Counted from the stretch's first letter, positions 34,248 to 59,028 are shown. The stretch: DNA of 64,000 nt from Bacilli bacterium (GCA_022653695.1 JALCSW010000001.1:53979-117978), one strand, 5' to 3'. Translations and numbers: made by a program. Notes: a model not told the origin generated them from the sequence alone.

Positions 34248-35786
34248 ATGAGAAAAACAAAAATCCTGTTTGTCTTGGCGGCAAGCGGACTTATGTTGTC
34301 GGCATGCGGAGGCACTAGCTCGTCAGCGAGTAGTCTCACCCCGTCGTCAACGTCCGCCTCGGCCTCTTCGAACGGCGGATCCACTTCAGAAAGCTCCTCT
34401 AGCCACAGCGCTAGTTCGTCGAGTCAGGCCGGTTCTTCTAGTTCCTCGAGTTCTTCCAGCTCCTCGAGTTCGTCAAGCTCTTCTTCGACTCCTTTCGTCG
34501 GAACGGACGTTTTCCTCACCGCGAGCAACGTTTTGGTTTACGGCGGCGAAGCGGCGGCCAAAACCGGTTACCTCACCTATTGGGCCGGCGATGGCGGAGC
34601 CCTTACGAGTTCAAGTTATGATGGCACCACCATCACGATGAACTTCACGATGGGGTGGGCTTGGTACGGCGTGCAACTGTTCTATGTCGCCCCTTATGCC
34701 ACTCCCAACAACGACTATGCCATCTCGGCCACTCTTAACTCGAGCGTTTCCGGCAGCGTTACGATCGACGGGAAAGCCGTTTCCCTGACGGCGAACGCGA
34801 ACTATGACTTCAGCACCGACTTCACCCAAGGCAACGGGGCGACCTTCGGCATGCAAATGGGCGTTGACGGCACTCCGCTAGGAAACGCCACCGTCAAAAT
34901 CTCGAATCTCAAAATCGTCGATAACACCAAAACCAACGTCTATCATGAAGTCACCTTCAAGAACGGCGACTCCCTCGTCGGCACGGTGCTCGCCAAGGAA
35001 GGCGAGGCCCTTTGGACTTATCCGGCCGATCCGACGCCCGCGGAAGGTTACGTCTTCGATGGCTGGTTCTATGGCGACAGCGAATTCAAGCCGGGATCAG
35101 ACGTCGTCAACGGCGATTTCACCGTAACCGCCAAATTCATCCAATGCGCCACCTATTCCGTCAAGCTATATAACGGCAGCGAACTTCTTGACACCTTGAC
35201 CGTCGCGGAAGGGAAGACCGTTTCGATCCCTGACGACCTTGACTATGGCTTCGCCCATAAGGCCAACGGCTGGTACAAGGACAGCGAATTCACGAACGCC
35301 TGGGACTTCGACGCCGACACCATCACCGCCGAAACCAGCCTTTACGTCCGCACCGCCGTCTATCCGGACGAGACTTACGAAAACAGCGAAGACCTTGGCT
35401 GGAAGATCGCCGACCAATACATGGCGATGCAAGACGACGGCTCCTTCCTCTACAGCGGGGAGGCCCCCTTTGGGGGAAGCGAAAGCTGGCATCGCCAAAT
35501 CAACTTCGACAACGTGCCGGTCGGCGTCGCGGGCACCAACTACGCGCTGACGTTCGAATACAAGATGAACTATGCCGCGGATACGAAGATTTGGGACAAT
35601 GTCGCCAACGCCGACAACGGCACCACGACTTCCCTGGCCGTCGCCGCCTCTTGGACGAAGATCACCATCAATTTCGCCGGCGGCGCCTTCAACGCCAACA
35701 ACAAACTCTCGTTTGAGCTCGGCGCCCAAAGCGGAGACGACACCGTCGCCTTCGCCCTCCGCGACGTCGCCGTCGCGGCGGCCTGA
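34248..35786 (+). CDS. surface lipoprotein with Ser-rich linker and two Listeria-Bacteroides-type repeat domains
   Basis: About 512 aa from MRKTKILF. Lipobox LSACGG. ~70-aa poly-Ser linker. Two repeats of pattern Y.V.F..G....T......A..P.DPT..GY.F.GW (List_Bact_rpt-like). GGGAGGG SD. Confidence 0.55.
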   Translation: MRKTKILFVLAASGLMLSACGGTSSSASSLTPSSTSASASSNGGSTSESSSSHSASSSSQAGSSSSSSSSSSSSSSSSSSTPFVGTDVFLTASNVLVYGGEAAAKTGYLTYWAGDGGALTSSSYDGTTITMNFTMGWAWYGVQLFYVAPYATPNNDYAISATLNSSVSGSVTIDGKAVSLTANANYDFSTDFTQGNGATFGMQMGVDGTPLGNATVKISNLKIVDNTKTNVYHEVTFKNGDSLVGTVLAKEGEALWTYPADPTPAEGYVFDGWFYGDSEFKPGSDVVNGDFTVTAKFIQCATYSVKLYNGSELLDTLTVAEGKTVSIPDDLDYGFAHKANGWYKDSEFTNAWDFDADTITAETSLYVRTAVYPDETYENSEDLGWKIADQYMAMQDDGSFLYSGEAPFGGSESWHRQINFDNVPVGVAGTNYALTFEYKMNYAADTKIWDNVANADNGTTTSLAVAASWTKITINFAGGAFNANNKLSFELGAQSGDDTVAFALRDVAVAAA

Positions 35787-35876
35787 TCACCCTGAGGATC
35801 ATACGCCATCATAAGGGGCGAAGCATCGCGATTGCTTTGCCCCTATTCAATGCCATCGCCAAATAAGGAAAAACCC

Positions 35877-38843
35877 ATGAACAAAAACACAAAGAAATTC
35901 GTCGTCGCCGCCTTGCTGGCCCTCACCATGGCCGGAACGGTTTCCTGCTCCTGCTCAAGCGTCGGAGGATCCTCGGAATCGAGCGCGGGAGAAAGCCAAT
36001 CGGCCGGAGCCTCGTCCGGAGAGGGAAGCTCCGCCTCTTCAGGCGCCTCTTCATCGAATGGCGGTTCGTCCGCCTCTTCAAGCTCGAGCGGCTCTTCTTC
36101 CGACTCGACCGGATCATCAAACTCGTCTTCGGGCACTTCGTCCAGCTCATCTTCCTCCTCCGGTTCCCCCAGCGGGGAAATCTCGCTCACGGGCGTCGAA
36201 GGCGCCTCGACCCCGAAAGGCCGTTATTTCGATCCCCTGAAGGGAGTCAGCGCGAAAGGAGCCGACGGAGCCGACATCACGAGCGCGATCGATATCTCCG
36301 GCAACGTCGACTACAGTATCGCCGGCGATTACCCTCTCGTTTACACCGTCTCGGATAACGGCAAGAAAGTCACCAAGAACCGGACCATAACCGTCACGAA
36401 CGACGGTTTGGGAAGCTATGCCCGCAAGAAAAGTTACGGCGAAGAAAAGACCGTCAACCTCGGCAAGGGATCGTATCTGGAAGGCAACAGCGACCTTATC
36501 GATTTCCGACCAGCCGACCCCTCGTTCGTCGACGACGAATTGATTGACGAAGCCCCGCTTCCGACCAATCGGTGGTGGAGCGGATTCGAAACCGCCAATT
36601 ACGGCGGGGTGACGCTCGCGGCCACCAATCCCCTTTACGTGAAGCTCAGCGCCGCTGGGGTCTCACTCACCAACAAAGGCACCGGCTTCACCCAGTATTT
36701 CACGGTCAACGACACCTTTGGGACCGCGCAGACCACCATGAGCCAATTCGCCCCCACCTTCAACGACATCAGCGTCGCCTCCGCCTCAATGGGATCCAAT
36801 CCCGTCAGCAAAGTCATCGGCTACAGCGAGAACTCCGTTCGCCTTTCCATGCGGAACAGTTCCGCTGGGGCCGATGAACTGGTGGCCAACCTCGTGCAGG
36901 GATCGCCTTTCGTCTTCTTTGAGAGCGATTCCCACACCATAAATTTGAACCTGCGCCTCGACGCGGTCACGAAACCCTATATCTTCTATGACCTCTCGGG
37001 CAACGTCATTACCGACTCCTACACCGGAGACGGCATCGTGATCGAACTGCCCCAAGCCCACTGCGGCTACGCGACGACTTATCCTAGCGTCGGCATCGGG
37101 GCCGCCCTTTATAAGGACTTCTATTACATCGTCAACGCCCCGAAGGGGTCCTCCTTCGCTTTCTCGCAACTCAAACACCCTTCAAATGAGTACAAAGACC
37201 ATGTGGCCATCACGCTCAACGGATCGAATTATCTCTCCGTGGGGATGTTGCCAAGCCTCGGCGAGGCAGGCCTCTACCATGCGGCCGGCTACTCCTTCAT
37301 CGACGCAGCCGATTCCTCATTCAGCATCGACAAGGCGAAAGCCGAGGTCACCACGACTTTCCGCGAAGCCGTGCAACATGTCGACGGCGGAAACGAAGAG
37401 CCCCTGCTAGCCCTGTTGCCGCACCAGTGGAAACATAGCGACGCCGCTTTGACATCCAGCTCTTTCAAAACCATGCGGGGAACCAATAAGGTACTTAAGG
37501 GCCGCACGTTCGCGACGACGAATGAGTTCCGGGGTCTTCTCCCCGGTTTCACGACCCCGCTCAACGGCGCCTTTAGCGCCGCGGACGCCAAAACCTACGC
37601 GACCAACTTGCTTAACGCCACCGTTCCGACGGGAAGCTTCGAAGAGGGGGGCAAGAACTTCATCGACGCCCCGGGGCCATACTGGAACGCCAAAGCGCTT
37701 TATCCCCTTTCACAAGCCATCTTGGCGATGAAGCAGCTTGGGGAGACCGAACTCACAAGCCAACTCGTCGCCCGCCTCAAGGACGACATGGTCGATTGGT
37801 TCACCTATTCGGGAACCGACGACGACCGTTTCCTCTATTACGACGAAGTCTACGGCACGATGTATTACAGCAATGACGATTTCTCGACCGGCAGCCGCCT
37901 TAGCGACCACCACTTCACTTCGGGATATCTCGTCTACGCCTCGGCCGTCCTCTCGATGGTCGACGGCTCCTTCCTCAGCGATTACGGCGACATCGTGACC
38001 CTCCTAGCCCGCGATTACGCTGATTACCAACGGAACGACGGAACCTATCCCTATCTCCGCTCCTTCGACACTTGGGCCGGCCACAGCTGGGCCGACGGTC
38101 GAGGTGACTTCGGGGATGGGAACGACGAGGAAAGCTCGGGCGAGTCGCTGAATTCCTGGGCCGCCGCTTACCTATTCGGAACGGTGTCGGGCAACCAAGA
38201 TATGGTCGACGCCGCCATCTATGGCTATGCGACCGAAATGGAATCCGTGAAGCAATACTGGTTCAACTACGATGGCGACAATTGGGATGCCGGCCTTTCG
38301 AACAACACCCACGTCGTCGGCATCGTCTGGGGGGCCAAGAACGACTGCGCGACGTGGTTCGGCAGCAACCCCGAATTCATCTATGGGATCCATTGGCTTC
38401 CCACGGGCGAGTATCTCACGGGCTACACCCTCGGCGATCAGGACGCCGCCACCTTCACGACCATCTATGACGAAATGCTCTCCAAACTCAATGGCACCAT
38501 CCGCACCTGGTGGAGCAACATGTGGGCCATGCAGGCCCTCATCGATCCCGACGGCGCCGTCAACGCCTTCGACAGTTCCAAGATCCTCGGCGACGATTAT
38601 CCGTATGAGCTCACAGGTTCGTACTGGATGGTGAACGCCCTCGCGGGTCTGGGCCGCAAGAGCCTCGACGACTATGCCGAGTTGAAAGAGGGAATCGCAG
38701 CCTCGGTCTACGAGAAAGGCGAAACGAAGACCCTGCTGGCCTATAACAGCACCGCTTCCGCCCAAAGCGTTCAGGTCGTGGTGAATGGGGGTGTCGTCAC
38801 CAAAACCATAGCCGCCAACAGTTACGCCAACTACAGCCTTTAA
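35877..38843 (+). CDS. GH81-family endo-beta-1,3-glucanase lipoprotein with Ig-like domain
   Basis: About 988 aa from MNKNTKKF. Lipobox VSCSC, Ser-rich linker, Ig-like/DUF5011-type domain. GH81-like motifs SDHHFTSGYLVYASAV and FDTWAGHSWADG...EESSGESLNSWAAAYLFG. Confidence 0.65.
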   Translation: MNKNTKKFVVAALLALTMAGTVSCSCSSVGGSSESSAGESQSAGASSGEGSSASSGASSSNGGSSASSSSSGSSSDSTGSSNSSSGTSSSSSSSSGSPSGEISLTGVEGASTPKGRYFDPLKGVSAKGADGADITSAIDISGNVDYSIAGDYPLVYTVSDNGKKVTKNRTITVTNDGLGSYARKKSYGEEKTVNLGKGSYLEGNSDLIDFRPADPSFVDDELIDEAPLPTNRWWSGFETANYGGVTLAATNPLYVKLSAAGVSLTNKGTGFTQYFTVNDTFGTAQTTMSQFAPTFNDISVASASMGSNPVSKVIGYSENSVRLSMRNSSAGADELVANLVQGSPFVFFESDSHTINLNLRLDAVTKPYIFYDLSGNVITDSYTGDGIVIELPQAHCGYATTYPSVGIGAALYKDFYYIVNAPKGSSFAFSQLKHPSNEYKDHVAITLNGSNYLSVGMLPSLGEAGLYHAAGYSFIDAADSSFSIDKAKAEVTTTFREAVQHVDGGNEEPLLALLPHQWKHSDAALTSSSFKTMRGTNKVLKGRTFATTNEFRGLLPGFTTPLNGAFSAADAKTYATNLLNATVPTGSFEEGGKNFIDAPGPYWNAKALYPLSQAILAMKQLGETELTSQLVARLKDDMVDWFTYSGTDDDRFLYYDEVYGTMYYSNDDFSTGSRLSDHHFTSGYLVYASAVLSMVDGSFLSDYGDIVTLLARDYADYQRNDGTYPYLRSFDTWAGHSWADGRGDFGDGNDEESSGESLNSWAAAYLFGTVSGNQDMVDAAIYGYATEMESVKQYWFNYDGDNWDAGLSNNTHVVGIVWGAKNDCATWFGSNPEFIYGIHWLPTGEYLTGYTLGDQDAATFTTIYDEMLSKLNGTIRTWWSNMWAMQALIDPDGAVNAFDSSKILGDDYPYELTGSYWMVNALAGLGRKSLDDYAELKEGIAASVYEKGETKTLLAYNSTASAQSVQVVVNGGVVTKTIAANSYANYSL

Positions 38844-38862
38844 CAGTTGAGCGAAAAAGATC

Positions 38863-38890
38863 AGCGCCACGAAAATGGCGCTTTTCTTTT
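38863..38890 (+). terminator. rho-independent terminator
   Basis: AGCGCCA-CGAAAA-TGGCGCT followed by TTTCTTTT. Confidence 0.75.
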
Positions 38891-38905: not shown

Positions 38906-38925
38906 AAGCGAAATCGGTTTCCTAA
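38906..38925. promoter_or_regulatory. degenerate copy of the LacI-type operator (perfect right half GTTTCCTAA)
   Basis: AAGCGAAATCGGTTTCCTAA, flanked by GTTAAC...GTTAAC. Confidence 0.4.
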
Positions 38926-38977: not shown

Positions 38978-39015
38978 TGAAAGCGCTTATATTTTTGATT
39001 GCGAAAGCGCTTTCC
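38978..39015. promoter_or_regulatory. two tandem cre-like sites (TGAAAGCGCTTATA and CGAAAGCGCTTTCC)
   Basis: Both contain the GAAAGCGCTT core. The second overlaps the -35/spacer of the downstream promoter. Confidence 0.45.
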
Positions 39016-39076: not shown

Positions 39077-41005
39077 ATGCATAAGTCCAAGAAACTGTTT
39101 ACGATTTTCTCTAGCGCGGCGCTGGCTTTGACGGTCGGCGGAGTCGCCATTGGCCTCAGCGGCGGCAACGTCAAAGCCGCCAACGCCGATGAAGTTGCCA
39201 CGATCGGTTCGCTAAGCGACTTCAACAGCGTGTTCGATGGAGGCGCCGGAAGTTCTGCCAAAGATATCACTTTGACGGCCGATATCGATTTGGGTGGCAT
39301 GTCTTTCGGGACAGCCAAAATGGCCGGTGAATATACCGGAACATTTGACGGGGGCGGTCACAAAATAACCAATTTCCTTGCCGGCGGAAATGCCGGTTTG
39401 TTCAACATTTCGTCGGGAACCATCAAGAATTTGACGCTTGAGTGCACCGCTAACGCCAATGGAACCTCGCCTCTGGCGTTCCAAAATAACGGCTCTGTCA
39501 CCGGGTGTCACGTCGTCGAAACGGTTTCATCCGCCTTAAACACCCTTTCAGGCTATTTCTGCAACGGAAGCGGAACGATCTCTGACTCCTACGCCCATTA
39601 CATATTCAACGCCTCCTGCCAAGGAACGAATACCGTATTTCCGTTCTATCGCGAAGGCTCGCCGACGATCACCGACTCCTATTACACAAAGAGCGACGCA
39701 ACGACCGGGATAACCATTACAGCAAACGTGGGAGCCAGCGAAACGGACCAGGTTTGCGGCGTGTCCGTTGCCGACAAAACCATAACCATGGGCGCCGATG
39801 AAACTCTTTCGGCTTCCACATATGGGTCGACGTATTCCGCGATCGCGTGGACGATTGACGATACGGGAATTGCGACGCTATCGAACGAAACGACCGACAC
39901 GGTTACCATTTCGGGCGTCTCCGCCGGCACCGCGACGCTGACATGCACCTATACATCGACTTTGGGAAGTTTCGCGAGTTCCTCGACCATCACCGTGCAA
40001 AACAGCTCGGCCGTTTCGGACGTAAGCGTTTCCCCCACATCAACATCTCTGTACACCGGGGCCACCACAACCCTCACCGCTACCCTGACCGGCAACGTTT
40101 ATGATCACGTCGCTTGGACGAGCGATGACGAAAGCCATGCGACCGTCGCGGGAGACGGCTTAACCGCCACCGTGACCGGCGTCGCCGCCGGCCCTGCCAA
40201 TGTCGCGATAACTGTTTACGATTCAAGCAACGGCGTCTTGGCGAGCGCCTCCTGCGCCGTGACAGTCAACGCCGCCGTGACGTTCGACTTCTACCTCGCC
40301 GTCAACTCGTCCTTCTCTTGGACCGCCGAATCGGCCATCTTCTACGGAGGCGGAATCACCGAAACCTCCTTCGATATGACCAATACCGGATATACTCTTC
40401 GCTTAAACGACGCCACCAACTTGAACACGCTGACCGAATATGACCTTTACTATCTGAACGTCAACGCTTCGGCCCTCGGAATGGTTGGCGCGACTGGCGT
40501 TTATGTCCAGGCCGGCAACGGTCAGAACCCCGGACGCTGGGGCTCGGGTTATAACGTCGATTCCTACACCAACGGTTTTGCGCTCTACACTCCTTTCGCT
40601 TCATCGGGCGCCCTTCAGAGCATCTGCACGGGTAGCGGGGCCAAAGAAGGCATCGATTGGGTCAACGGGCTTACCGATTGGAGAGACGGCAACGATTCGA
40701 TCTGCTATCTCCTCGATGGGGCGAACGAAACCAAGAAAACGACCATCCTCGATTCCTATAATGCCCTTTCGGGCGACGCGAAGACCTTCTTAGGGACCCT
40801 CACCGACGATACCGCCGATTACGATTCGACTTACGGCACCACGATTTCCTATCTAAGCGCCGCCGGAAGTCCCGCCATCGCCGTATTCTCCGAACTCCCC
40901 GACACCAAGTACACCGTTCTCTTCGTCACCGTCGGCATCGCCGCGTTGGCGGTCGGCGGTTACTTCATCGTCAGAGCCACGAAGAAAAGGAAAGCCAAAG
41001 ACTGA
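39077..41005 (+). CDS. surface protein with GLUG-motif domain, Big_2 Ig-like repeats and C-terminal TM anchor
   Basis: About 642 aa from MHKSKKLF. Signal peptide. GLUG-like segment FDGGGHKITNF...GLFNISSGTIKNLTLE. Two or more BIG2-like repeats (TISGVSAGTATLTCTY, TATVTGVAAGPANVAITV). C-terminus LPDTKYTVLFVTVGIAALAVGGYFIVRATKKRKAKD. Confidence 0.55.
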   Translation: MHKSKKLFTIFSSAALALTVGGVAIGLSGGNVKAANADEVATIGSLSDFNSVFDGGAGSSAKDITLTADIDLGGMSFGTAKMAGEYTGTFDGGGHKITNFLAGGNAGLFNISSGTIKNLTLECTANANGTSPLAFQNNGSVTGCHVVETVSSALNTLSGYFCNGSGTISDSYAHYIFNASCQGTNTVFPFYREGSPTITDSYYTKSDATTGITITANVGASETDQVCGVSVADKTITMGADETLSASTYGSTYSAIAWTIDDTGIATLSNETTDTVTISGVSAGTATLTCTYTSTLGSFASSSTITVQNSSAVSDVSVSPTSTSLYTGATTTLTATLTGNVYDHVAWTSDDESHATVAGDGLTATVTGVAAGPANVAITVYDSSNGVLASASCAVTVNAAVTFDFYLAVNSSFSWTAESAIFYGGGITETSFDMTNTGYTLRLNDATNLNTLTEYDLYYLNVNASALGMVGATGVYVQAGNGQNPGRWGSGYNVDSYTNGFALYTPFASSGALQSICTGSGAKEGIDWVNGLTDWRDGNDSICYLLDGANETKKTTILDSYNALSGDAKTFLGTLTDDTADYDSTYGTTISYLSAAGSPAIAVFSELPDTKYTVLFVTVGIAALAVGGYFIVRATKKRKAKD

Positions 41006-41100: not shown

Positions 41101-41595
41101 ATGAAACAATCCCTCATCTCGCTAGAAGACCTAAGGGCCGCCGATCGAAAGAACGCCTGGCTCATCGCTTTCGAGGTTTTTCTCGTCATGGCGATGGGGG
41201 CCGCCACCGCTTTGATATACGTTTTCCAAAGCAGGGCCACCCAAACCATTTTCATTTGGGTAGGATCAATCATCTATATCCTCGTTCTAACCGTTTTTTT
41301 CTATGTTCTTTTCATGATGATCCGACCGCTAGGCAGTTACCGCCGCTTCATGAGGAAGGCCCTCTCCAAACCGCGTCCGCTCAATGACGTCAGCGTCCTT
41401 TCCTTGAGCAAGGAGAGGGAGACCTACAAGGGTTTTCCTTGCTTTTCCCTCCGCGTCAGGGAACTCGACGAAGGCACCGTCTGGAACGTCCGTTACGAAT
41501 CGTCGGCGCCGATCGACGTCACGATAGGCGGCGTCTACGAAATCGAAACCTACGATGAGGTCCTCTGCGCGATAAAAGAGGAGAAACGGCGATGA
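41101..41595 (+). CDS. hypothetical membrane protein (2 TM plus ~80-aa soluble domain)
   Basis: 164 aa. First gene of a chain of five ORFs all joined by ATGA overlaps. Confidence 0.45.
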   Translation: MKQSLISLEDLRAADRKNAWLIAFEVFLVMAMGAATALIYVFQSRATQTIFIWVGSIIYILVLTVFFYVLFMMIRPLGSYRRFMRKALSKPRPLNDVSVLSLSKERETYKGFPCFSLRVRELDEGTVWNVRYESSAPIDVTIGGVYEIETYDEVLCAIKEEKRR

Positions 41596-42257
41596 AGGTA
41601 GGCGTCACAAAAGAGAAAATCGGCGACTTCTTCACGAGTTATGGCTGGGTCGAACTGCTTCTTGCCATCGTGAGCGTGGTGGCCTGGTACTGGCCCATAA
41701 CCGCCATCGACCAAATCAGGAGCGACGAACGAATCAACTTCTTCATCGAATGCTATGGTTTCAAAGACGAGGAATTCCAAAACCAATTGCGGGATGATTT
41801 GGCCGATAGCGGGGTCGAGGAGGTCAACGTCTACTCTTATTCCCCGAGCGATTCCCTCATCAACAGCTATTACGAGGCCTTCGGAACCGAAAGCGACTTC
41901 CTCTTTCTCTTATCAAGCGACCTCGACACGATGTTCGAAAACCCCAACGCCGCTCTTCTTAGCGAATTCCTCGCTTGGGGGGACGCGCTGAAAGCGGAAG
42001 TCATGCCAAACTTCTCCGCCGCTTCGTTCTACGAGGTCGAAGGGGTCCCTTACGCCCTCAAGGTTTATGACCCTGAAGATGCCTCCTATAGCCAGAGGAT
42101 CGAGGATTTCGCCCTTTTCCATACCGAGATGAAGAGCGAGGCCGTCTACCTCCTCCTTAACGCGGCGACCCCCAATTTCGGTTCCTACGCCGACGGATCG
42201 GCGACCTCCAACGCCGTAGCGGCCTTATCTATGTTCATCGAAAGGTATTACTTATGA
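41592..42257 (+). CDS. hypothetical membrane-anchored protein (1 TM plus acidic ~190-aa extracytoplasmic domain)
   Basis: 221 aa, ATGA overlap on both sides. No recognisable family. Confidence 0.45.
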   Translation: MKVGVTKEKIGDFFTSYGWVELLLAIVSVVAWYWPITAIDQIRSDERINFFIECYGFKDEEFQNQLRDDLADSGVEEVNVYSYSPSDSLINSYYEAFGTESDFLFLLSSDLDTMFENPNAALLSEFLAWGDALKAEVMPNFSAASFYEVEGVPYALKVYDPEDASYSQRIEDFALFHTEMKSEAVYLLLNAATPNFGSYADGSATSNAVAALSMFIERYYL

Positions 42258-45395: not shown

Positions 45396-45402
45396 GAAAA
45401 GA

Positions 45403-45440
45403 AAACCCGTTTCGGTCCGCAAGACGAAACGGGTTTTTAA
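45403..45440. terminator. bidirectional rho-independent terminator
   Basis: AAACCCGTTTCG-loop-CGAAACGGGTTT flanked by A and T runs, between convergent genes. Confidence 0.75.
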
Positions 45441-47036: not shown

Positions 47037-47050
47037 TGAAAGCGCTTCCT
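47037..47050. promoter_or_regulatory. cre-like site TGAAAGCGCTTCCT (perfect match to TGWAARCGYTWNCW) between divergent promoters
   Basis: 14/14 match to the cre consensus. Placed between the divergent GH16 and SBP promoters. Confidence 0.55.
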
Positions 47051-47058: not shown

Positions 47059-47087
47059 TTGACGGGAAGCCGTCCCATCCATATAAT
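47059..47087 (+). promoter_or_regulatory. consensus sigma-A promoter TTGACG-17-TATAAT for the sugar ABC operon
   Basis: -35 at 47059-47064, -10 at 47082-47087. Identical architecture to the 34090 promoter. Confidence 0.65.
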
Positions 47088-47095: not shown

Positions 47096-47115
47096 TTAGG
47101 AAATCGATTTCTTAA
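47096..47115. promoter_or_regulatory. LacI-type operator TTAGGAAATCGATTTCTTAA
   Basis: 20-bp palindrome with ATCGAT centre and one arm mismatch, 8 nt after the -10 box. Confidence 0.6.
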
Positions 47116-50620: not shown

Positions 50621-52090
50621 ATGAAAAAAGTTACAAAAAACGCTACGTTCGCTTTGCTAGTCGCCTTCGCTCTCGTCGGGGCCGCCTCGTGTTCCTGCAA
50701 AAGCGTCGGTACCTCGGGGGAATCCGCTGGAACGTCCGGCGGAAACTCCGGATCGCCCACCCCGAGCGCCCAGGTCTTCAAAGACAATAAGGCCTATTAC
50801 GACACAAGCGCGGACGCTTATGACCTGAGCGTGGAAACGGGCCTTACCGGAGAGGCGACTTCCGTCAAAGTCGGGCGGAGCGAAGCCAGCGCGGATCAGT
50901 ACTCACTCGACGGCAACGGGGTCTTGACCCTTTCCGGGTCCTTCTTGTCAAGCCTTAACGCCGGCGAGAAGGAAGTCTCCCTCGTCGCGGGAGGCAAGAA
51001 AGCCACCATCGACCTCTTCATGGCCACCAAAGTCATCAAAACCGCCGACGAGTTTCAGGCCATCAACGACGATTTGACCGGTTATTACGTCCTTGGCAAC
51101 GACATCGACCTGTCCTCGATTCAAAACTTCGAGCCTTTGGGCAAGTATTGGAGCGAAACGGACACCAACAACGCTTATTTCCATGGCATCCTCGAGGGCA
51201 ACGGTCACACGATCGAGAACGCCAACGTCCTCTATAGCGACAGCGTCGCCACCAATTACAACGTCTATAGCAACAGCGGGAATTACAAGTTCGACTTAAG
51301 CTGCCACTCGGCCGGTGACAACATCGGCCTCTTCCAGATCATTGGCAGCTCCGGCGTCGTCCGCGATTGCAATTTCAAGAACATCAAAGTGCGGGGCCGC
51401 ACGATTTGCGGGGTCATCGCCGGCAACTGCTCCGGAACGGTCTACAACTGCCATATCGACAGCTCCTGCTCCGTTGAGATGGGCACCCACTTCTACGACG
51501 ACGACTGCAATATGGGCGGGGCCTTCGGCATCGTGGCCGGAACCGGGAACGTGTACAACCTCGTCAGCGAGGTCACGAGCCTGACCCTTGGGGCGACCGG
51601 TTCGAGCACCGTCAACGGGGTCTCGGTCGAAAAAGCCGGCATCTTCTTGGACTGGGATGACGATTACATCGGCCAAACCGGCAACGGCTGGGACCATGGC
51701 GAAGGCACCGACAACCCCTGGTGGAAGTTCTGCGGGGTCGACAAAGTCAACTCCAGCAGCGTCGCTTATACCGACAGCAACGGCGCCCCCACCAACGGCG
51801 AATACGCTTTCGTCGGCAAGTGCTGGGGCAACGTCAGCGACTGCGTCGCGAAAGCCTTCAACGTCGTGCCGATGGACGGATCGGCGAGACCGATTTATTT
51901 CGGGCAAACCCATCTCGGAGCCAACAAACCCACGAGCGGAGAGAGCGATCTCGGATCGCTGACCGACGATGTCCTTCTCGATTCCTCCGGCCTTAAGACG
52001 GCTTCCAACTACGCAAGCTTCGATAACGAGGTCTGGAACATCCAAGACGGCTCGGTCCCAAGCCTCAACGCCTATTACGAATTCGAATAA
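50621..52090 (+). CDS. surface lipoprotein with GLUG-motif beta-helix-like domain
   Basis: 489 aa. Lipobox ASCSC. GLUG-like motifs (FHGILEGNGHTIENANV; NIGLFQIIGSSGVVRDCNFKNIKV). Many Gly/Asn-rich turns. Confidence 0.5.
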   Translation: MKKVTKNATFALLVAFALVGAASCSCKSVGTSGESAGTSGGNSGSPTPSAQVFKDNKAYYDTSADAYDLSVETGLTGEATSVKVGRSEASADQYSLDGNGVLTLSGSFLSSLNAGEKEVSLVAGGKKATIDLFMATKVIKTADEFQAINDDLTGYYVLGNDIDLSSIQNFEPLGKYWSETDTNNAYFHGILEGNGHTIENANVLYSDSVATNYNVYSNSGNYKFDLSCHSAGDNIGLFQIIGSSGVVRDCNFKNIKVRGRTICGVIAGNCSGTVYNCHIDSSCSVEMGTHFYDDDCNMGGAFGIVAGTGNVYNLVSEVTSLTLGATGSSTVNGVSVEKAGIFLDWDDDYIGQTGNGWDHGEGTDNPWWKFCGVDKVNSSSVAYTDSNGAPTNGEYAFVGKCWGNVSDCVAKAFNVVPMDGSARPIYFGQTHLGANKPTSGESDLGSLTDDVLLDSSGLKTASNYASFDNEVWNIQDGSVPSLNAYYEFE

Positions 52091-52140: not shown

Positions 52141-55100
52141 ATGGTGAAATACGGATATAAAAACGATTCCTTTATCATTAAGGATTATCAGAAGGCGAAG
52201 ACTTTCGCTTCTTTTCTCCCGGCCGTCGCCGGGGTCGACGGAAAGCCTTTGTGGGCTTTCTACGCGAACGTCGGGCAAGCCATGGGTGGGTTCGGAGTGA
52301 CTTCGAAAGACACTCCGATAACCCCCTTTGACAGCGCCAACCTCGCCTATCAGAACATCCCAATCCGTTCCTTCCGAACGTTTTTGAAGGTCAACGGCAA
52401 AACATACGCGCCTTTCTTCCCGGGCAACGGGGGAAAAGACGACATGGCGATCCGCCGCAGCGACTTCTCAATCAGCGAGAAAGGCCCCGGCTACGCCATG
52501 AAAATCACTTATTTCACCGTCCCCCACCAAAACTATGCGGCGTTGATCCGCAAGGTAACCTACAAGAACCTCGGCAAGAGTGCGGCGAAATTCGTCGCCC
52601 TCGACGGCGTTCCCGTCTTTTTCCCGCATGGGCTCAGCAACGTCTGCTATAAGGAACTCGTTTCCCTCATGGCGGCCTATTGTCAGGTTTATGGCCTCAA
52701 GGACAGGCGGCCGTTCATAAAATTCAAGACCTCGACCGGGGACAACTCGGTCGTCAAGGAAGCGGTGTCCGGCAACGGTTTCTTCGCCAAAGACGAAGAG
52801 GGTCGCCTCTTGCCCGATATCGTCGATCCTTCATCCGTCTTTGGGGACGACCTCTCGCTTCTTTCGGCCGCCCCGTTTGTCGAGAAAAGCCCAAAGGCCT
52901 TTTTATCGGGCGATCAGCAAACCGAAAACAAACTCCCTTGCGCTTTCTCGCTTTTCGAGAGAAAACTGCTTCCCGACGAAGAAGCCTCGGTCTATGAAGT
53001 CTATGGCATGTTCGACAGCGTCGAAGCTTTTCACGCGGCTGAGAAAGGCCTGAGGGTCGCTCACATCGAGGAACTCCAAAAGGAAAACGCCAAATTGATC
53101 GAAGAGTTGCTCGCCCCGGCGAGCTGCCACACGGCGAACCCCCTTTTCGACGATTACCTCAAGCAAAGTTATCTCGATAACGATTTGCGTGGGGGTTTCC
53201 CCGTCCTGCTCGACGACAAGAAAGACGGGCAGGTCTACTACGTCTATGGCCGCAAGCACGGCGACATGGAGCGTGACTACAACGCTTTTAACATCCCCTC
53301 CCGCTACTATAGTTCGGGCCCGGGCAATTTCCGCGACGTCAACCAAAACCGCCGCACCGACCTTTTCTTCCATCCTTTCGTGGGCGATTACAACATTCGC
53401 CTCTTCTTTAACCTCATCCAAGCCGATGGACAGAACCCCCTCAACGTCAAGCCGGAGGTTTTTTGCCTTAACAAAGGGGCGGATCTTTCCTTTCTAGGCA
53501 AGGAGACGAAAGACGAACGACTGCTAAAAATCGCCGCCAAATATGAGCCAAGCGACCTTTACGCCTACCTCAAGGACACGATGGGACTCACCAACGAAAA
53601 GGCCAACGAAATCCTCGCCGACTTCCTTAGCGTCTCCCACCAAGAAATAGAAGCCAACTTCGCGGAAGGGTATTGGGTCGACCATTGGACGTACAACGTC
53701 GACCTGCTCGAGAATTACAGCGCCATTTTCCCCGATAAGGAGGAATCGCTCCTCTTCGCGCCCGGCTATCGCTACTTCTATAGCCCCGTCTACGTCGAAC
53801 CGCGCAGCGAGAAAACGTGCCTGCTCAGCGACGGAAGGATCCGCCAATACGGCGCCATCGACCTTAAAAAACTCAAGGACGTCTGCGAGAAAAAGCATTT
53901 CGACATCAAGAAAACGGCATGGCTCGCCGACAAAAACGGGAAAGAGATAAACGTCGATCTGGCCTCGAAGATCATCAATCTCGCCCTCGTCAAATTCAGC
54001 GCCCTCGACACCCAGCAGATGGGCATCGAGATGGAATGCGAGAAACCAGGCTGGAACGACGCGATGAACGGCTTGCCTGGGCTCTTTTCAAGCGGCCTTT
54101 CGGAATCCGTCGAACTTCTGCGCCTCGTCCGTTACGCCCGGAAGCATCTGTCCCCATTCGGGAAACGCGATCTTTCCTTCCTTGAGGAACAATACGCCCT
54201 TTACGAGGTCATCAAGGAAAAGCTACCCTCGCTCATGAAAGGCGAACTCGCCCCCTTTTCCTATTGGGACGCGGTCACATCGGCGCGCGAAAAGATGCGC
54301 CTCGCCCTCAAGGACCGAGCCGAAGGAAACGTCATCAAGGTCTCCGTCTCTGAAATCCTTCCCCTTCTGGATAGCATGGACGAAACCCTTGAGAAAGGGA
54401 TCCAAAAGGCCAAAGCGATCGGAAACGGCATTCTCCCCAGTTACCTCATTTACGACGTCGCGTCCTACGAGAAAACCGACCATGTCAACCACCTTGGCTT
54501 CCTAACCGTCAAGGCGACCTCTTTCTCTTTACGGACGATCCCGCCCTTCCTCGAGGCTAGCGCGCGCGCCCTTAAACTCGGCCCGAAAACCATTACTCAT
54601 GAGGATTGCCTTCGCATCAAGCAAAGCGACCTCTACGACAAGACGTTCCGTTTCTACAAGACCTGCTCCTCTCTCGATAAGGCCCCCTTTGAAATCGGCC
54701 GCGTCCACGCTTTCACGAAAGGCTGGCTGGAGCGGGAATGCAACTTCCTCCATATGTCCTATAAATATATGCTTGGCCTATTGACCGCCGGCTATTACGA
54801 GGATTTCTATAAGGAAATCAAAACCAATTTCGTGGTTTTCATGGACCCGAAGGTTTACGGGCGCAGCCCCATCGAGGCTTCCAGTTTCGTCGTTCCCAGT
54901 TGCAACCCCGACGCGAGCAAACGCGGCGAGGGTTTCTTCGCCCGCCTCACGGGGGCCAACGCCGAGTTCCTCAACATGTACATGCTGATGTTCGCGGGAC
55001 CCACCATTTTCGAAATGGATCATGGGAAACTCGTTTTCTCCCTTTCGCCGAAGCTTTCCAAGGATTTCTTCGACCAAAAGGACGAGGTTTCCTTCCTTCT

Positions 55101-55272
55101 TTTCGGAAAGACGAAAGTCACCTACCATAACCCCAGGCGGATCGATTGCTATAAGGGAGCCAAACTGAGATACGCGATCGGCGGGGAGGTCTACGAGAAA
55201 GTCGAAGGCCCGCTCGCGGAAAACGTCCGCGAAGGCGGAGTCAAAAACATCTACGTGGAGATCAGCCGATGA
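52141..55272 (+). CDS. large cytoplasmic GH94-clan glycoside phosphorylase-like protein (candidate beta-1,3-glucan/oligosaccharide phosphorylase, GH149/GH161-like size)
   Basis: 1043 aa, no signal peptide. Segments resembling GH94-clan catalytic motifs (GNFRDVNQN similar to GFRDxLQD; EKPGWNDAMNGL similar to GDWNDxxN with the general-acid Asp). Sits in a beta-glucan locus. Confidence 0.5.
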   Translation: MVKYGYKNDSFIIKDYQKAKTFASFLPAVAGVDGKPLWAFYANVGQAMGGFGVTSKDTPITPFDSANLAYQNIPIRSFRTFLKVNGKTYAPFFPGNGGKDDMAIRRSDFSISEKGPGYAMKITYFTVPHQNYAALIRKVTYKNLGKSAAKFVALDGVPVFFPHGLSNVCYKELVSLMAAYCQVYGLKDRRPFIKFKTSTGDNSVVKEAVSGNGFFAKDEEGRLLPDIVDPSSVFGDDLSLLSAAPFVEKSPKAFLSGDQQTENKLPCAFSLFERKLLPDEEASVYEVYGMFDSVEAFHAAEKGLRVAHIEELQKENAKLIEELLAPASCHTANPLFDDYLKQSYLDNDLRGGFPVLLDDKKDGQVYYVYGRKHGDMERDYNAFNIPSRYYSSGPGNFRDVNQNRRTDLFFHPFVGDYNIRLFFNLIQADGQNPLNVKPEVFCLNKGADLSFLGKETKDERLLKIAAKYEPSDLYAYLKDTMGLTNEKANEILADFLSVSHQEIEANFAEGYWVDHWTYNVDLLENYSAIFPDKEESLLFAPGYRYFYSPVYVEPRSEKTCLLSDGRIRQYGAIDLKKLKDVCEKKHFDIKKTAWLADKNGKEINVDLASKIINLALVKFSALDTQQMGIEMECEKPGWNDAMNGLPGLFSSGLSESVELLRLVRYARKHLSPFGKRDLSFLEEQYALYEVIKEKLPSLMKGELAPFSYWDAVTSAREKMRLALKDRAEGNVIKVSVSEILPLLDSMDETLEKGIQKAKAIGNGILPSYLIYDVASYEKTDHVNHLGFLTVKATSFSLRTIPPFLEASARALKLGPKTITHEDCLRIKQSDLYDKTFRFYKTCSSLDKAPFEIGRVHAFTKGWLERECNFLHMSYKYMLGLLTAGYYEDFYKEIKTNFVVFMDPKVYGRSPIEASSFVVPSCNPDASKRGEGFFARLTGANAEFLNMYMLMFAGPTIFEMDHGKLVFSLSPKLSKDFFDQKDEVSFLLFGKTKVTYHNPRRIDCYKGAKLRYAIGGEVYEKVEGPLAENVREGGVKNIYVEISR

Positions 55273-56348
55273 AAAAAGGGAAAACGGTTCTCGCTTTAAC
55301 GGCCGTGCTGACCCTTTCCGCCTGCTCGTTTGAGTTCGATTTTTTCGCGAACTCGTCGAGTTCAGCCGGCTCGCTAAGCGCTTCCGCCTCCGAAAGCGGC
55401 TCTTCTTCCGGCGACCATCCCCTTCCTTCCTCCTCCAGCGAAACGAACTCAAGCGAGGGGGACTCGTCTTCCTCTGCCCCCTCGAGCTCTTCCAGCGGCC
55501 TGCCTTTTGGGCCAGGCGGCTCTTCAAGCTCCGACGATTCTTCCTCTTCCTCCGATTCCTCGAGTTCATCGAGTTCCGCTTCGTCGGGCGACCCATACGT
55601 GCCATCGGGTTACGATTTGGCGTGGAGCGACGAATTCGACGGAGACGCCGTCGACGAAAGCAAGTGGGCTTTTCAAACGGGAGACGGCAGCGATTACGGC
55701 ATTTGGGCCTGGGGCAACAACGAAAAGGAATACTACCAAAAGGATAACGCCACGGTCAGCGACGGATGCCTATCCATCACCGCCAAAAAAGAGAACGTCG
55801 CAAACTATCCCTATACCTCCGCCCGGATGCGGACGTATGGCAAAAAGTCTTGGACGTATGGCTTTTTCACGGCTCGGATGTCTTTGCCGGGCATCGTGGG
55901 AAGCTGGCCCGCCTTTTGGATGCTCCCCGTTTCCTCTTGGAACGGCAAGGGTTGGCCGTGGAGCGGGGAAATCGACATCATGGAGAACGTGGGCGGGTCC
56001 AATGGGACCGTCTTCACGACCGTCCATACGGGTCTCGACAACAGTTCGGGCAGCAATGCCAATTCCCATCGTTCGCCGGTTGGCGATGCCACCGCTTTCC
56101 ACGAGTATAGCGTCCTTTGGGACGAAAGCGGCCTCCGTTTCTATACCGACGGGGCCCCGACTTTCTTCGTAAGTGCCTCTTCCTACGCCACCTATAGCGG
56201 CTATAGTTCGGGCGATCCCTTCGACGTTCCGTTCTATCTCATCCTCAATCTCGCGATAGGCGGGAATTTCGTGAACAACGCCACCCCGAACGACGCCGAG
56301 ATGCCTTGCGCGATGAAAGTCGATTATGTGAGGGTTTACCAACAATGA
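55269..56348 (+). CDS. GH16-family beta-glucanase lipoprotein
   Basis: 359 aa. Lipobox LSACS, ~90-aa Ser-rich linker. GH16 motif [11 protein letters not shown]. Confidence 0.8.
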   Translation: MKKGKTVLALTAVLTLSACSFEFDFFANSSSSAGSLSASASESGSSSGDHPLPSSSSETNSSEGDSSSSAPSSSSSGLPFGPGGSSSSDDSSSSSDSSSSSSSASSGDPYVPSGYDLAWSDEFDGDAVDESKWAFQTGDGSDYGIWAWGNNEKEYYQKDNATVSDGCLSITAKKENVANYPYTSARMRTYGKKSWTYGFFTARMSLPGIVGSWPAFWMLPVSSWNGKGWPWSGEIDIMENVGGSNGTVFTTVHTGLDNSSGSNANSHRSPVGDATAFHEYSVLWDESGLRFYTDGAPTFFVSASSYATYSGYSSGDPFDVPFYLILNLAIGGNFVNNATPNDAEMPCAMKVDYVRVYQQ

Positions 56349-57274
56349 AAAAGAAAACAGTTTTGATCGTCGCCTGCCTCCTCTCCGTTTCCGCCATTGC
56401 CGGGTGCGCGGGTTTCTCGAGCGCCCCCCTCGACTCGTCGCTCCCTTCCTCCTATTCTTCCTCTTCCGCCCCGGCTTCCTCCGGCGAAGGCGGGATGAGT
56501 TTGGTTTGGTCCGACGAATTCGACGGCACCGCCCTCAACGAGGACTATTGGAGCTATATGATCGGCAATGGCAGCGATTATGGGGTTTACGAATGGGGGA
56601 ACAACGAAGCCGAGAATTACCAACGGGATAACGTCGAGGTCTCCGACGGTTTTCTCCACATCACCGCCAAAGCGGAGAAAACGAAAATCGGCTCGAAGGA
56701 GTATTCCTACACTTCCGGGCGGATTCGCACCGCCGGCAAAGTCAGTTGCGTTTATGGCCGCGTCGAGGCTCGGATCGCCCTTCCTTTCGTCGATGGGATG
56801 TGGCCCGCTTTCTGGATGCTTCCCGAAAAGGCCTATAATGGTTTGGGTTGGCCCACCTCAGGGGAAATCGACATCATGGAAAACAAAGGCAGCACCGACG
56901 CCTACGCCTCGAGCGCCGTCCACTACGCCAACCTCAACGGCGACCACGCTTACGTGACCGACGGGAAAACCTTCAGCAAACGCAACGGCGAGAGCACGAC
57001 CGATTTCCATGTCTATTCGTGCGATTGGGACGAGGACGGATTCGTCTTCTCGTGCGACGGGGAAAGCTACTTCAGCGTTGAGAAGAGGGTCTACCATCCC
57101 GGCAACAGCCGCATCTACCCCGACGACGACAACGCCCCCTTCAACGCCCCGTTTCATATCCTCCTCAATTTGGCCGTGGGCGGAAATTTCGACAACGGGG
57201 CTTTGCCTCCCAGCGGTTTCGATAGTTGTGAGATGAAGGTCGATTACGTGAGGATCTACGGTTTCGAGGGATAG
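56345..57274 (+). CDS. GH16-family beta-glucanase lipoprotein (paralogue)
   Basis: About 309 aa from MKKKTVLIV (ATGA overlap with previous gene). Lipobox IAGCAG. GH16 motif [11 protein letters not shown]. Roughly 45% identical to the preceding GH16 by eye. Confidence 0.8.
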
Positions 57275-57276
57275 CC

Positions 57277-59028
57277 ATGTTCACCAAAAAGAAAGTTCTC
57301 GCCCCCACCAAAAAGGAAATAGAGGGGCTTTATGCCCTCGAGGATGAGGTAAGCGACCAAAACGAAGCCCGCAAGCGAAAGCTCCGCCGCGAAAAGGAGG
57401 CGCTCCGGCACAGCAAGTTCCTTTCGCGCTCCCACGGGCAAGAGGAAATCCAAAAAGAGGACGAGCGCGTCAAGGCTTTCGAGCGGAAAGAGGAAGCGAT
57501 GCGCCTCGCCTACGAAAAAGAACGGCTCGAGGCTCATGAGGTCCGGCGCGCCGAGGAAGCGGCGAAAAGGAAAAACGAGGAAAGCCTCAAGGCTTCCCTC
57601 AGCCCCGAGCTATACGCTAGGCGCCACGAAGAAGCGGCCCGCGAAGCCCGCCACGCCTTCAAAAGGGCGCAGGAACGGTTGCTTTTGAGGAAAGAGGACG
57701 CCGACATCGCCGACCGCAATCTCGTTTACCGCGACGTGAACGATTACGAAACCGTCCACCGGAAGGAGGCGAAAAAAGCCCCCAAAGGCGTTTTCCTCAG
57801 TTGCCAGCGGGTCAGCAAAATCTATTCGAATCGCGTTGAAGCGGTCCATGATTTCTCCCTTGACGTCAATAAGGGCGACTTCATCGTTCTGGTCGGCCCC
57901 TCGGGATGCGGCAAATCGACGACGCTCCGCATGATTGCCGGGCTTGAGGATATCACGACGGGCGACCTTTATATCGATGGCCGATACGCCAACAAACTCG
58001 AGCCAAAGGAACGCGGGGTCGCGATGGTCTTCCAAAACTACGCCCTCTATCCCCATATGTCGGTCTTCGAAAATATGGCCTTCGGCTTATCGGGCTTGCC
58101 GAAAGAGGAGATCAAAGCCCGTATCAAGGCGGCCGCCGACATGCTTCAGATCGCCGAATTCCTCGACCGTAAGCCTACGGCCCTCTCCGGCGGCCAGTGC
58201 CAGCGCGTGGCCCTCGGGCGCGCCGTGGTAAGGAAGAGCCCGATTTTTCTGCTCGACGAGCCTCTCAGCAACCTCGACGCCAAACTCCGCGTCCAGATGC
58301 GAAGCGAGCTCATCAAACTCCATGAAAGCCTTGGCAACACGATGATTTACGTCACCCACGACCAGACCGAGGCCATGACCATGGCGACCCGCATCGTCGT
58401 CATGAAACGCGGCCTCATCCAGCAGGTCGGCACCCCTTCGGAGGTCTATCGGAAACCCGCCAACGTTTTCGTGGCCACCTTCATCGGCAGCCCAACCATG
58501 AACGTCATCGAAGCCGTCTACAAGAAAGGGCGCGTCCGTTTTTCCGACGGCCAGTCGATCGCCCTTCCCAAGAGCGAGGTCAAATCCCATGACGACTTCT
58601 ACGCGGCGCGCAAGGCGCTTCTTGAGAAAGAAATCGGGGATTTGCGGGATGAGGAGAGGAAACGCGCGGAAGCTAAGGCCTCCAAAGTCCGCTTCCTGCC
58701 GCTCGACTTCCGGAAGGAAATCTCTTCGCGCGAAGAGGAACTCGATTCCATCGCCGACATCATCAAAACGGGCGAGCATCAGATTTTCTTCGGGATCCGC
58801 CCCGAAAACATCGAACTGGGAACGAAGGAAAGCGCCCTCAAGAGCGACATCGTTTTCACCGAACTATTGGGCGCCGACTACCATCTGCACCTTGCCTTCA
58901 ACGGCGGCGAGATCATCGCCAAAGTCCCAGCGGGGGATAAGCCCATCGAAAAAGGCCCGATCCGGATTTCCTTCAAACCCGGACGGAGCCATCTCTTCGA
59001 CTTCGAAAGCGAACTCCGCATCATCTAA
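57277..59028 (+). CDS. msmK: sugar ABC transporter ATP-binding protein (MsmK/MalK-like) with ~170-aa charged N-terminal extension
   Basis: 583 aa. Walker [10 protein letters not shown] only at ~aa 205. Q-loop, signature [14 protein letters not shown], Walker B FLLDEP, H-loop, then MalK-type C-terminal TOBE domain with a KE-rich insertion. Confidence 0.75.

Follow-up and report, generated by a model that had tools for sequence, protein, structure and literature searches.

Which polysaccharide is served by a dense cluster of glycoside hydrolase (GH), transporter and regulator genes, and whether such a cluster works as one system, are the questions raised by a locus of ~25 kb (34248-59028) within a 64-kb window, that is, the whole analysed stretch of 64,000 nucleotides from Bacilli bacterium (GCA_022653695.1, JALCSW010000001.1:53979-117978). 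An interpretation made without database searches (the sequence-only reading) had proposed a coherent locus for the utilisation of laminarin-like beta-1,3/1,6-glucan, and gene families, localisation signals, shared operators and synteny in ~25 species bear out a coherent beta-1,3-glucan utilisation locus. With a probability of roughly 0.8, we consider the region to be a regulon of five transcription units for beta-1,3-glucans with beta-1,6 branches, possibly also for some mixed-linkage glucan, in an RFN20/CAG-826 (UBA4951-like) bacterium. The map of open reading frames (ORFs) contains 17 genes, 16 on the plus strand and one, encoding a divergent GH16 protein (45456-46958), on the minus strand, and agrees exactly with the gene starts at 34248, 35877 and 52141 and the end at 59028 that the sequence-only reading had given (Table 1).

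Predicted glucanases and the phosphorylase

The identity of the 35877 protein as GH81, on which the sequence-only reading had staked its interpretation, holds: the Pfam model Glyco_hydro81C is passed at 3.2e-51, and the matching structures in PDB are endo-1,3-glucanases, namely GH81 of C. thermocellum (6fop, 3.5e-70) and BH0236 of B. halodurans (~3e-53), while the GH81 N-domain, at 20.5 bits, stays below its Pfam cut-off of 25.6 bits. The sequence contains DHHFTSGY (DHHFxxGY) and EESSGE (ExxxE), motifs that we presume to be significant for GH81.

Equally, three GH16 enzymes, one of them with a carbohydrate-binding module (CBM), had been expected, and all three lie above the Pfam gathering score. 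Two share EIDIME, the ExDxxE beta-bulge catalytic motif; the 55269 protein (Pfam GH16 2.8e-20) matches the laminarinases 6jh5 (9.5e-53) and 3azx (5e-47) in a PDB comparison covering this protein only, and the 56345 protein (8.2e-18) is typed as a laminarinase by its motif. The third, divergent enzyme (Pfam GH16 2.8e-9; 37.1 bits versus a cut-off of 22) carries E192-I-D194-I-E196, a lichenase-type motif without the bulge Met that is invariant in 34 homologs. Its AlphaFold (AF2) model, with a predicted local distance difference test (pLDDT) score of 88.8, has its best Foldseek matches among Bacillus 1,3-1,4-glucanases (lichenase 1u0a, 6e-12, TMt 0.80), and the NCBIfam model BglS is matched at 2.9e-8. 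Judged from the EIDIE motif and the structural matches of its model, this GH16 is lichenase-like rather than of the laminarinase type. Several of its homologs bear Pfam CBM_4_9 (PF02018), which supports the CBM assigned to one of the three enzymes.

The 1043-aa protein encoded at 52141 has no match in Pfam and nothing above cut-off in NCBIfam, where the GH149 model reaches 2.8e-15 and 55 bits against a cut-off of 1150. A sequence search of PDB, on the other hand, aligns it over residues 7-1040 with a solved GH161 (9qqk, 'GH161A', 2.9e-198) and over its full length with a second one (9h8v, 8.9e-197); the GH149 structure 6hq6 is matched weakly (5e-6) and GH94 is absent among the matches. The segments FRDVNQNRR, KPGWNDAMNG (KPGWYDALNG in 9qqk) and LHMSYKY (LHMEYKY in 9qqk) are conserved in the alignment with 9qqk and presumably include the catalytic Asp and the phosphate-binding His, roles that we carry over from GH94 and from the family comparison in PMC6484121 at the level of segments rather than of single residues. 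Signal sequence and transmembrane (TM) segment are both absent. By sequence similarity, the protein is clearly a GH161 beta-1,3-glucan phosphorylase. The sequence-only reading had made its membership in the phosphorylases or the GH94 clan decisive and had described the protein as a ~1040-aa GH94-clan phosphorylase-like enzyme; the precise family is GH161 and not GH94 itself, and the clan label is right because GH161 shares clan GH-Q with GH94 and GH149 (PMC6484121).

An identical sequence in NCBI, MCI2110817.1, carries the name 'cellobiose phosphorylase', which, given the similarity to the solved GH161 structures, is probably wrong on substrate. The characterised GH161 PapP phosphorolyses beta-1,3-oligosaccharides with a degree of polymerisation of at least 3, stops at laminaribiose and tolerates other beta-linked disaccharide acceptors (PMC6484121), and another GH161 accepts glucose according to the abstract of a preprint (bioRxiv 10.1101/2025.04.05.647330). 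Such reactions are reversible (PMC6484121) and, as stated in the same abstract, are used for synthesis in vitro, so that the enzyme might be thought to build an intracellular beta-1,3-glucan reserve from glucose-1-phosphate; this is scarcely credible here, since the operon places the gene between those for an importer and those for secreted endo-glucanases, under a sugar-type repressor, the context for which a degradative role of bacterial GH161 has been proposed (PMC6484121).

A degradative system might equally be devoted mainly to cereal mixed-linkage beta-1,3-1,4-glucan (MLG), as is the MLG locus of Blautia producta. The divergent GH16, conserved universally and resembling 1,3-1,4-glucanases in motif, model and BglS match, leans towards this substrate, as do the habitats of the relatives, gut and rumen, in which cereal glucan is common, and the acceptor tolerance of PapP. 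The GH81 family is, however, beta-1,3-specific, two of the GH16 enzymes are laminarinase-like and the phosphorylase belongs to GH161 and not to GH94 as used for MLG and cello-oligosaccharides (PMC10318527). A locus dedicated mainly to mixed-linkage glucan is thus unlikely, and branched beta-1,3-glucan is retained as the preferred substrate.

Proposed uptake and intracellular hydrolysis

Uptake had been ascribed to a solute-binding protein (SBP), two permeases and an MsmK-like ATPase of the ATP-binding cassette (ABC) type, in full accordance with the Pfam domains found (SBP_bac_1, BPD_transp_1 twice and ABC_tran/OB_MalK/TOBE_2). The ATPase has 583 instead of the usual ~370 residues. An N-terminal extension of 171 aa is rich in K/E/R (44%), and the regulatory domain contains a charged insert, ~50 aa long, that separates OB_MalK from TOBE. 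Such a K/E/R-rich extension, 23-171 aa long and in many cases ending in an ...EKIAPKD-like motif, is found in 21 of 22 orthologous loci, and the insert in most.

The 272-aa polytopic protein reaches Pfam DUF624 (8.8e-4) and NCBIfam MusI_fam (1.9e-3), both below cut-off, and may assist the sugar ABC importer as an accessory protein. Its gene is part of a unit (41101-45395) with the genes for a 2-TM protein, a 221-aa protein, GH30 and LacI, which are joined by 4-bp ATGA overlaps throughout.

The GH30 protein is devoid of signal sequence and TM segment, and its relatives in PDB rank in the order Salmonella SrfJ (2wnw, 8e-74), human glucocerebrosidase (1.5e-43) and 5ngk (2e-40), which we take to be the BT3312 endo-1,6-glucanase. 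From the proposed cytoplasmic GH30 of a beta-1,6 debranching type, family and location stand and the beta-1,6 type remains a candidate, given the score discussed below. From sequence comparison, a beta-1,6 debrancher is plausible, and the enzyme may equally clear laminaribiose instead; with no GH1, GH3 or GH94 in the window, GH30 is the obvious candidate for clearance of laminaribiose and/or beta-1,6-linked glucose. The sole other glycoside hydrolase noted in the search of the window for a beta-glucosidase or GH94 is a GH31 (22485-24632, minus strand; Pfam 1e-103), ~10 kb upstream of the locus, with no locus operators near and apparently unrelated.

In the pathway envisaged, lipid-anchored GH81, the two laminarinase-type GH16 and the lichenase-like GH16 with its CBM would cleave the polysaccharide at the surface of the membrane, and two further lipoproteins, List_Bact and a 489-aa protein, would retain it at the cell surface together with the TM-anchored Big_2 protein. 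The lipoprotein SBP, the two permeases and their own ATPase would take up the oligosaccharides, perhaps with the DUF624-like protein as an accessory; GH161 would release glucose units as glucose-1-phosphate in the cytoplasm, which would save ATP, leaving to GH30 the hydrolysis of products out of reach of GH161, namely laminaribiose and/or beta-1,6-linked glucose. We infer the substrate and the order of the enzymes. The logic drawn up beforehand, with endo-beta-1,3-glucanases at the surface, ABC import and, in the cytoplasm, both phosphorolysis and hydrolysis, under the control of a local LacI and with operators in common, is supported.

Surface anchoring and candidate glycan-binding proteins

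The lipobox pattern G+LPP occurs in seven proteins (List_Bact, GH81, the three GH16, SBP and the 489-aa protein), for which lipidation is predicted, and LPXTG in no protein of the locus. This is in line with the expectation that the extracellular endo-acting enzymes are all lipoproteins and that anchoring proceeds by lipobox or C-terminal TM tail, as displayed by the Big_2 protein, rather than by LPXTG. The lipobox Cys is Cys24 in the 489-aa family, where it never varies, and Cys23 in the divergent GH16 family, where at least 90% of the sequences keep it.

Surface proteins with GLUG, List_Bact and BIG2 domains had been suggested to bind glycan. List_Bact repeats in the 512-aa lipoprotein and Big_2 domains in the 642-aa protein (Pfam 6e-13; TM segments at 7 and 612) were found; GLUG was not, as Pfam GLUG (PF07581) has no match at E<=10 in the 489-aa or the 642-aa protein, the sole match in the relaxed search being Peptidase_M26_N (0.08), with GLUG-like strings such as GVIAGNCSGTVYNC discernible by eye. 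Based on its repeats, the 512-aa lipoprotein is a putative surface glycan-binding protein. Paralogy of the 489-aa and 642-aa proteins was considered and rejected (BLASTP E 0.21).

The 489-aa lipoprotein matches no sequence in Pfam, NCBIfam or PDB, the latter being searched with phmmer and with a 40-sequence profile. Its 178 close homologs are mostly nameless or, in a few cases, named 'hypothetical'. An AlphaFold model built with a 40-sequence alignment (pLDDT 90.4; predicted template modelling score, pTM, 0.87) contains an immunoglobulin (Ig)/X2-like domain and, after it, a beta-rich one. Against PDB, Foldseek returned nothing at E<=0.001; the weak matches are led by the X2 module found in trimodular GH5_4 cellulases (5e-3) and by an IgA1 protease (7uvk, 6e-3, TM 0.23). 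The family profile detects 4682 proteins at E<=1e-3 among 1.8 billion representatives, and the best 150 of the 4682 are mostly very long multi-repeat proteins which share profile positions ~118-300; P0219, among the matches listed, combines a GH16 catalytic domain with a subsequent module of the 489-aa type (30% identity, E 3e-22). In related loci, the gene invariably comes after the permease genes. Taken together with its model, the 489-aa lipoprotein is a putative surface glucan-binding component.

Promoters and operators

Two distinct 14-bp palindromes were recognised, motif B GGAAAYCGRTTTCC and motif A TGAAAGCGCTTTC, the latter near the consensus of the catabolite-responsive element (cre). 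The motif B core GAAATCGRTTTC has four exact sites (34129, 38909, 46969 and 47099), all in three promoter regions; allowing at most one mismatch, nine strand matches at five positions are obtained, the fifth (44277) in coding sequence, a number that none of 100 shuffles reached. Motif A (GAAAGCGCTTTC-type) also has four sites (34068, 38978, 39002 and 47037) in the three promoter regions of motif B, outside which the intergenic DNA of the 64 kb contains neither motif. The best promoter-like sites of the region, two in number, are identical, each with motif A ~9 bp 5' of the -35 and motif B ~11 bp 3' of the -10 hexamer, and the region between the divergent GH16 and SBP genes is symmetrical in the order motif B, minus-strand promoter, motif A, plus-strand promoter, motif B.

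Between the orthologous genes of eight related loci (L005, L007, L011, L020, L021, L027, L041 and L047), and thus in at least eight other species with proteins only 40-78% identical, the B-A-B order recurs at spacings of 67-70 and 61-66 bp. Such a recurrence at this level of identity makes the layout a phylogenetic footprint that, on sequence comparison, cannot be chance.

A LacI regulator of its own and shared operator motifs had been attributed to the locus, and both are there. The regulator unites a LacI helix-turn-helix (HTH) and the fold of periplasmic binding proteins; its predicted target, a 14-bp palindrome centred on CG, is located at all four promoters. As motif B occupies a repressor position at every promoter, just 3' of each -10, we infer a site for the local LacI, which would act there as a repressor, and the cre-like motif A beside each -35 would serve as a second input, probably catabolite control. 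No operator was found upstream of the 41101-45395 unit, so the regulator would stay expressed. The possibility that the local LacI is CcpA itself was rejected (ccpA model, 142 bits versus a cut-off of 442).

Further elements read in the vicinity include a perfect GC-rich palindrome TTCGCGCGCGCGAA (34013-34026), ~40 bp 5' of the motif A that precedes the first promoter and unrelated to A or B, and a GC-rich hairpin GGCCGCC-CTTGT-GGCGGCC (52098-52116) without T-run, which lies inside the operon between the genes for the 489-aa lipoprotein and GH161 and may be an attenuator or an element of RNA processing or stability. An Rfam scan detected no RNA element inside the locus.

Conservation and host lineage

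With the GH161 protein as query, 80 genomic loci were collected and analysed by a tblastn matrix and by gene order. The core order GH16(-)|SBP-perm1-perm2-[List_Bact]-lipo489-GH161-GH16-GH16-ATPase occurs in ~25 species-level metagenome-assembled genomes (MAGs), labelled Bacilli, Mollicutes, Erysipelotrichaceae, Acholeplasmatales or Ca. Enteromonas/Alloenteromonas, whose sources are bioreactors and the gut of humans, ruminants, rabbits and chickens. Among the loci, the p221-DUF624(-GH30-LacI) module changes its place yet remains close, and the pair of 221-aa and DUF624 genes goes along with GH161 loci in many relatives. In more remote loci, whose GH161 is 35-42% identical (Halobacillus, Pontibacillus, Chloroflexota), GH30, LacI and permeases are still present and this type of SBP, the 489-aa lipoprotein and the divergent GH16 are absent. 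A sub-clade (L012, L014 and L015) shows a rearranged order in the region ~10 kb upstream of GH161, with permease 2, a paralogue of the 489-aa lipoprotein (33-35% identity), GH16, ATPase, the 221-aa protein, DUF624, (GH16) and GH161, with a single motif B directly 5' of GH161.

These comparisons also bear on whether the 25 kb are one system or whether the List_Bact/GH81 and Big_2 units are adhesins and unrelated enzymes beside a smaller GH161/ABC operon. Within the fetched flanks of related loci, GH81 stands beside the core in L023 alone, and the positions of List_Bact and of the GH30/LacI module differ between species, as would be expected of independent units. Against this, both operator motifs sit at the promoters of these units and, between genes in the window, nowhere outside the locus, List_Bact orthologs in L013 and L018 bear B-A-B sites as well and the List_Bact gene has its place within the transporter operon in L007 and L008. 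A composite of unrelated parts is thus very unlikely, and the locus is regarded as a unit because of the shared operators and the synteny in ~25 species.

The genes on either side are unrelated: those upstream encode a spermidine-synthase-like/major facilitator superfamily (MFS) fusion and an HTH protein, those downstream a kinase-like protein and the components of a phosphonate ABC system. The boundaries assigned to the locus are thus right. In the combination of enzyme, transporter and regulator in one cluster, with co-regulation deduced from the shared operators, the region has the composition of a Gram-positive-type polysaccharide utilisation locus (PUL), which reportedly, following Sheridan et al. 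in 2016, consists of a co-localised degrading enzyme, carbohydrate transporter and transcriptional regulator.

The window is part of a 642-kb contig of metagenomic origin. The closest genome, UW_MP_BACIL4_1 with 89-99% protein identity, is classified as o__RFN20; f__CAG-826; g__UBA4951 and has 1.59 Mb at 52.4% GC (PMC9302107). On these sequence grounds the host is an RFN20/CAG-826 bacterium of a UBA4951-like genus; Ca. Enteromonas also belongs to RFN20/CAG-826 (PMC8035907). CAG-826 has been predicted to be peptidoglycan-deficient and RFN20 to be without srtA/B sortases, and the order, without a cultured representative, has been described as minimal in metabolic capability (Field et al., PMC10868615). 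With neither wall nor sortase predicted, LPXTG anchoring would be unavailable and lipid or TM anchoring would be a necessity. The label 'Gram-positive-style' given to the locus is consequently only loosely apt for a host predicted to have no peptidoglycan or sortase.

Several points weigh against the regulon for branched beta-1,3-glucan as laid out here. The roles of all its genes are deduced from sequence and model comparison. The model of the lichenase-like GH16 suggests that the substrate may be wider or of another kind; the GH30 protein, at 185.7 bits, stays short of the cut-off of 700 of the NCBIfam beta-1,6-glucanase equivalog Nd1_6BtaGucnBT3312, and the window offers neither a GH1 or GH3 beta-glucosidase nor a GH94 that would secure laminaribiose clearance. 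It is position and resemblance to cre that suggest the pairing of motif B with LacI and of motif A with CcpA. Finally, the absence of a wall is a published prediction at the family level (PMC10868615).

Table 1. Positions of genes, promoters, operators and hairpins of the locus within the window
Feature	Position	Strand	Basis or remark
Operator motif A TGAAAGCGCTTTCG, cre-like palindrome	34068..34081	.	9 bp 5' of -35
Promoter-like TTGACG-17-TATAAT (11/12), List_Bact-GH81 unit	34090..34118	+	
Operator motif B GGAAATCGGTTTCC	34129..34142	.	just 3' of -10
List_Bact lipoprotein, 512 aa, Ser-rich linker, Listeria-Bacteroides repeats	34248..35786	+	Pfam Flg_new 9.5e-9; lipobox LSAC
GH81 endo-beta-1,3-glucanase lipoprotein (predicted), 988 aa, Ig-like domain	35877..38843	+	Pfam, PDB, lipobox
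Bidirectional terminator-like hairpin after GH81	38863..38882	.	sequence
Operator motif B CGAAATCGGTTTCC	38909..38922	.	
Two motif A sites, 38978-38991 and 39002-39015	38978..39015	.	second overlaps -35 of promoter-like site 38999-39027
Big_2 surface protein, 642 aa: signal peptide, GLUG-like region (by eye), 2 Big_2, C-terminal TM anchor	39077..41005	+	
164-aa protein, 2 TM segments	41101..41595	+	ortholog in L011
221-aa protein, 1 TM segment	41592..42257	+	accompanies DUF624 gene in related loci
Polytopic membrane protein, 272 aa, weak DUF624/MusI-like	42254..43072	+	Pfam, NCBIfam, synteny
GH30, 438 aa, cytoplasmic (predicted), group-1 type	43069..44385	+	Pfam 1.2e-42
LacI-family regulator, 337 aa	44382..45395	+	Pfam LacI 1.3e-19, Peripla_BP_3 1.5e-27
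Hairpin CCCGTTTCG...CGAAACGGG and T-run between convergent LacI and GH16 genes	45402..45438	.	read from sequence
Divergent GH16 lipoprotein, 500 aa, EIDIE motif, C-terminal CBM4/9-like beta-sandwich	45456..46958	-	Pfam, AF2, Foldseek
Operator motif B, 5' leader of divergent GH16 gene	46969..46982	.	
Promoter-like site, divergent GH16 gene	46991..47019	-	
Operator motif A, midway between two divergent promoters	47037..47050	.	position conserved in orthologous loci
Promoter-like TTGACG-17-TATAAT (11/12), transporter-phosphorylase operon	47059..47087	+	
Operator motif B	47099..47112	.	3' of -10
Solute-binding lipoprotein, 491 aa, lipobox LAAC	47137..48612	+	Pfam SBP_bac_1 9e-20
ABC permease 1	48622..49641	+	Pfam BPD_transp_1
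ABC permease 2	49645..50592	+	Pfam BPD_transp_1
Lipoprotein of unannotated family, 489 aa, Ig/X2-like and beta-rich domain	50621..52090	+	AF2, synteny
GH161 beta-1,3-glucan phosphorylase (predicted), 1043 aa, cytoplasmic (predicted)	52141..55272	+	PDB sequence matches
GH16 laminarinase-type lipoprotein, 359 aa, EIDIME motif, Ser-rich linker	55269..56348	+	Pfam, PDB
GH16 laminarinase-type lipoprotein, 309 aa, EIDIME motif, lipobox IAGC	56345..57274	+	Pfam
MsmK/UgpC-type ABC ATPase, 583 aa	57277..59028	+	Pfam ABC_tran, OB_MalK, TOBE_2; NCBIfam UgpC subfamily 1e-133

Other features of the window

The fusion protein encoded directly before the locus (32062-33783, minus strand) has 573 aa and consists of an MFS-like membrane region and a domain resembling spermidine synthase. 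Farther away, a purine riboswitch aptamer (12528-12626; Rfam RF00167, 47.2 bits) lies directly 5' of an amidohydrolase-family gene (12656-13912), and one 460-aa ORF (11055-12437, minus strand) fuses a LigB-type domain to an AMMECR1 domain.

Relation to known systems

Laminarin PULs of Bacteroidota, such as the GH30/GH17 PUL of Formosa, bring together surface endo-beta-1,3-glucanases, glycan-binding proteins, a beta-1,6-acting GH30, an importer and a regulator. They rely on outer-membrane import by SusC/SusD and on periplasmic hydrolysis without a phosphorylase, whereas the present locus would combine a lipoprotein SBP and ABC transporter with cytoplasmic phosphorolysis in a single-membrane cell.

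Bacterial genes for GH161 have been found clustered with those for ABC transporters, GH1, GH3, GH30 and GH16, also in Acholeplasma, and import followed by phosphorolysis has been proposed (Kuhaudomlarp et al., 2019, PMC6484121). In these clusters, for example around PapP of Paenibacillus polymyxa and in Bacillus weihaiensis, Acholeplasma laidlawii and A. oculi, a cytoplasmic GH161 is likewise situated beside an ABC transporter and GH16 and/or GH30/GH1/GH3, and the hosts include Mollicutes-type organisms (PMC6484121). Beyond these, the present locus contains GH81, three GH16, three surface proteins including a conserved unannotated lipoprotein, and an ATPase of its own, which most of the published clusters do not have, all in an RFN20 host; it is without a GH94, GH1 or GH3 partner, and its GH30 is predicted to be cytoplasmic whereas that of B. 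weihaiensis is predicted to be secreted (PMC6484121). The experimentally dissected MLG locus of Blautia producta, a gut bacterium of the Bacillota, follows the same logic of cell-anchored GH16, SBP-dependent ABC import and cytoplasmic phosphorylase, but with GH94 and GH3 glucosidases for beta-1,3-1,4-glucan and with no GH81 or GH161 (Singh et al., 2023, PMC10318527).

In the literature searched, no paper was found on glycan use by CAG-826 or UBA4951, nor one that joins GH161, GH81 and laminarin in bacteria. The kind of cluster has been described already in 2019, and the mechanism adds little beyond the published models of GH161 and of Gram-positive PULs.

Meaning for the biology of RFN20

The value of the locus lies in the host lineage, uncultured, with a reduced genome and predicted to be wall-less, in the strong conservation of the regulon, in the unassigned lipoprotein and in the atypical ATPase. 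New sequences of GH161, GH81 and GH16 together with a candidate glucan-binding module become available for enzymology, and the public annotation of MCI2110817.1 would be corrected. The 25-kb locus corresponds to ~1.6% of the 1.59-Mb closest related MAG, and its conservation, together with that of the regulatory architecture, in ~25 species points to beta-1,3-glucan as a core niche, with yeast and fungal walls, algal laminarin and cereal glucan as candidate sources; it equally suggests beta-glucan as a selective substrate for the isolation of RFN20 bacteria. More tentatively, the 489-aa lipoprotein might be a surface module for the binding of beta-1,3-glucan that has so far escaped recognition, or possibly represent a new catalytic family; together with the extended ATPase it would define a clade-specific machine for beta-glucan foraging. 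If so, the uncultured and predicted wall-less RFN20/CAG-826 would have in this machine their signature carbohydrate niche, and beta-glucan as sole carbon source combined with cell-wall antibiotics would provide a rational route to their isolation.

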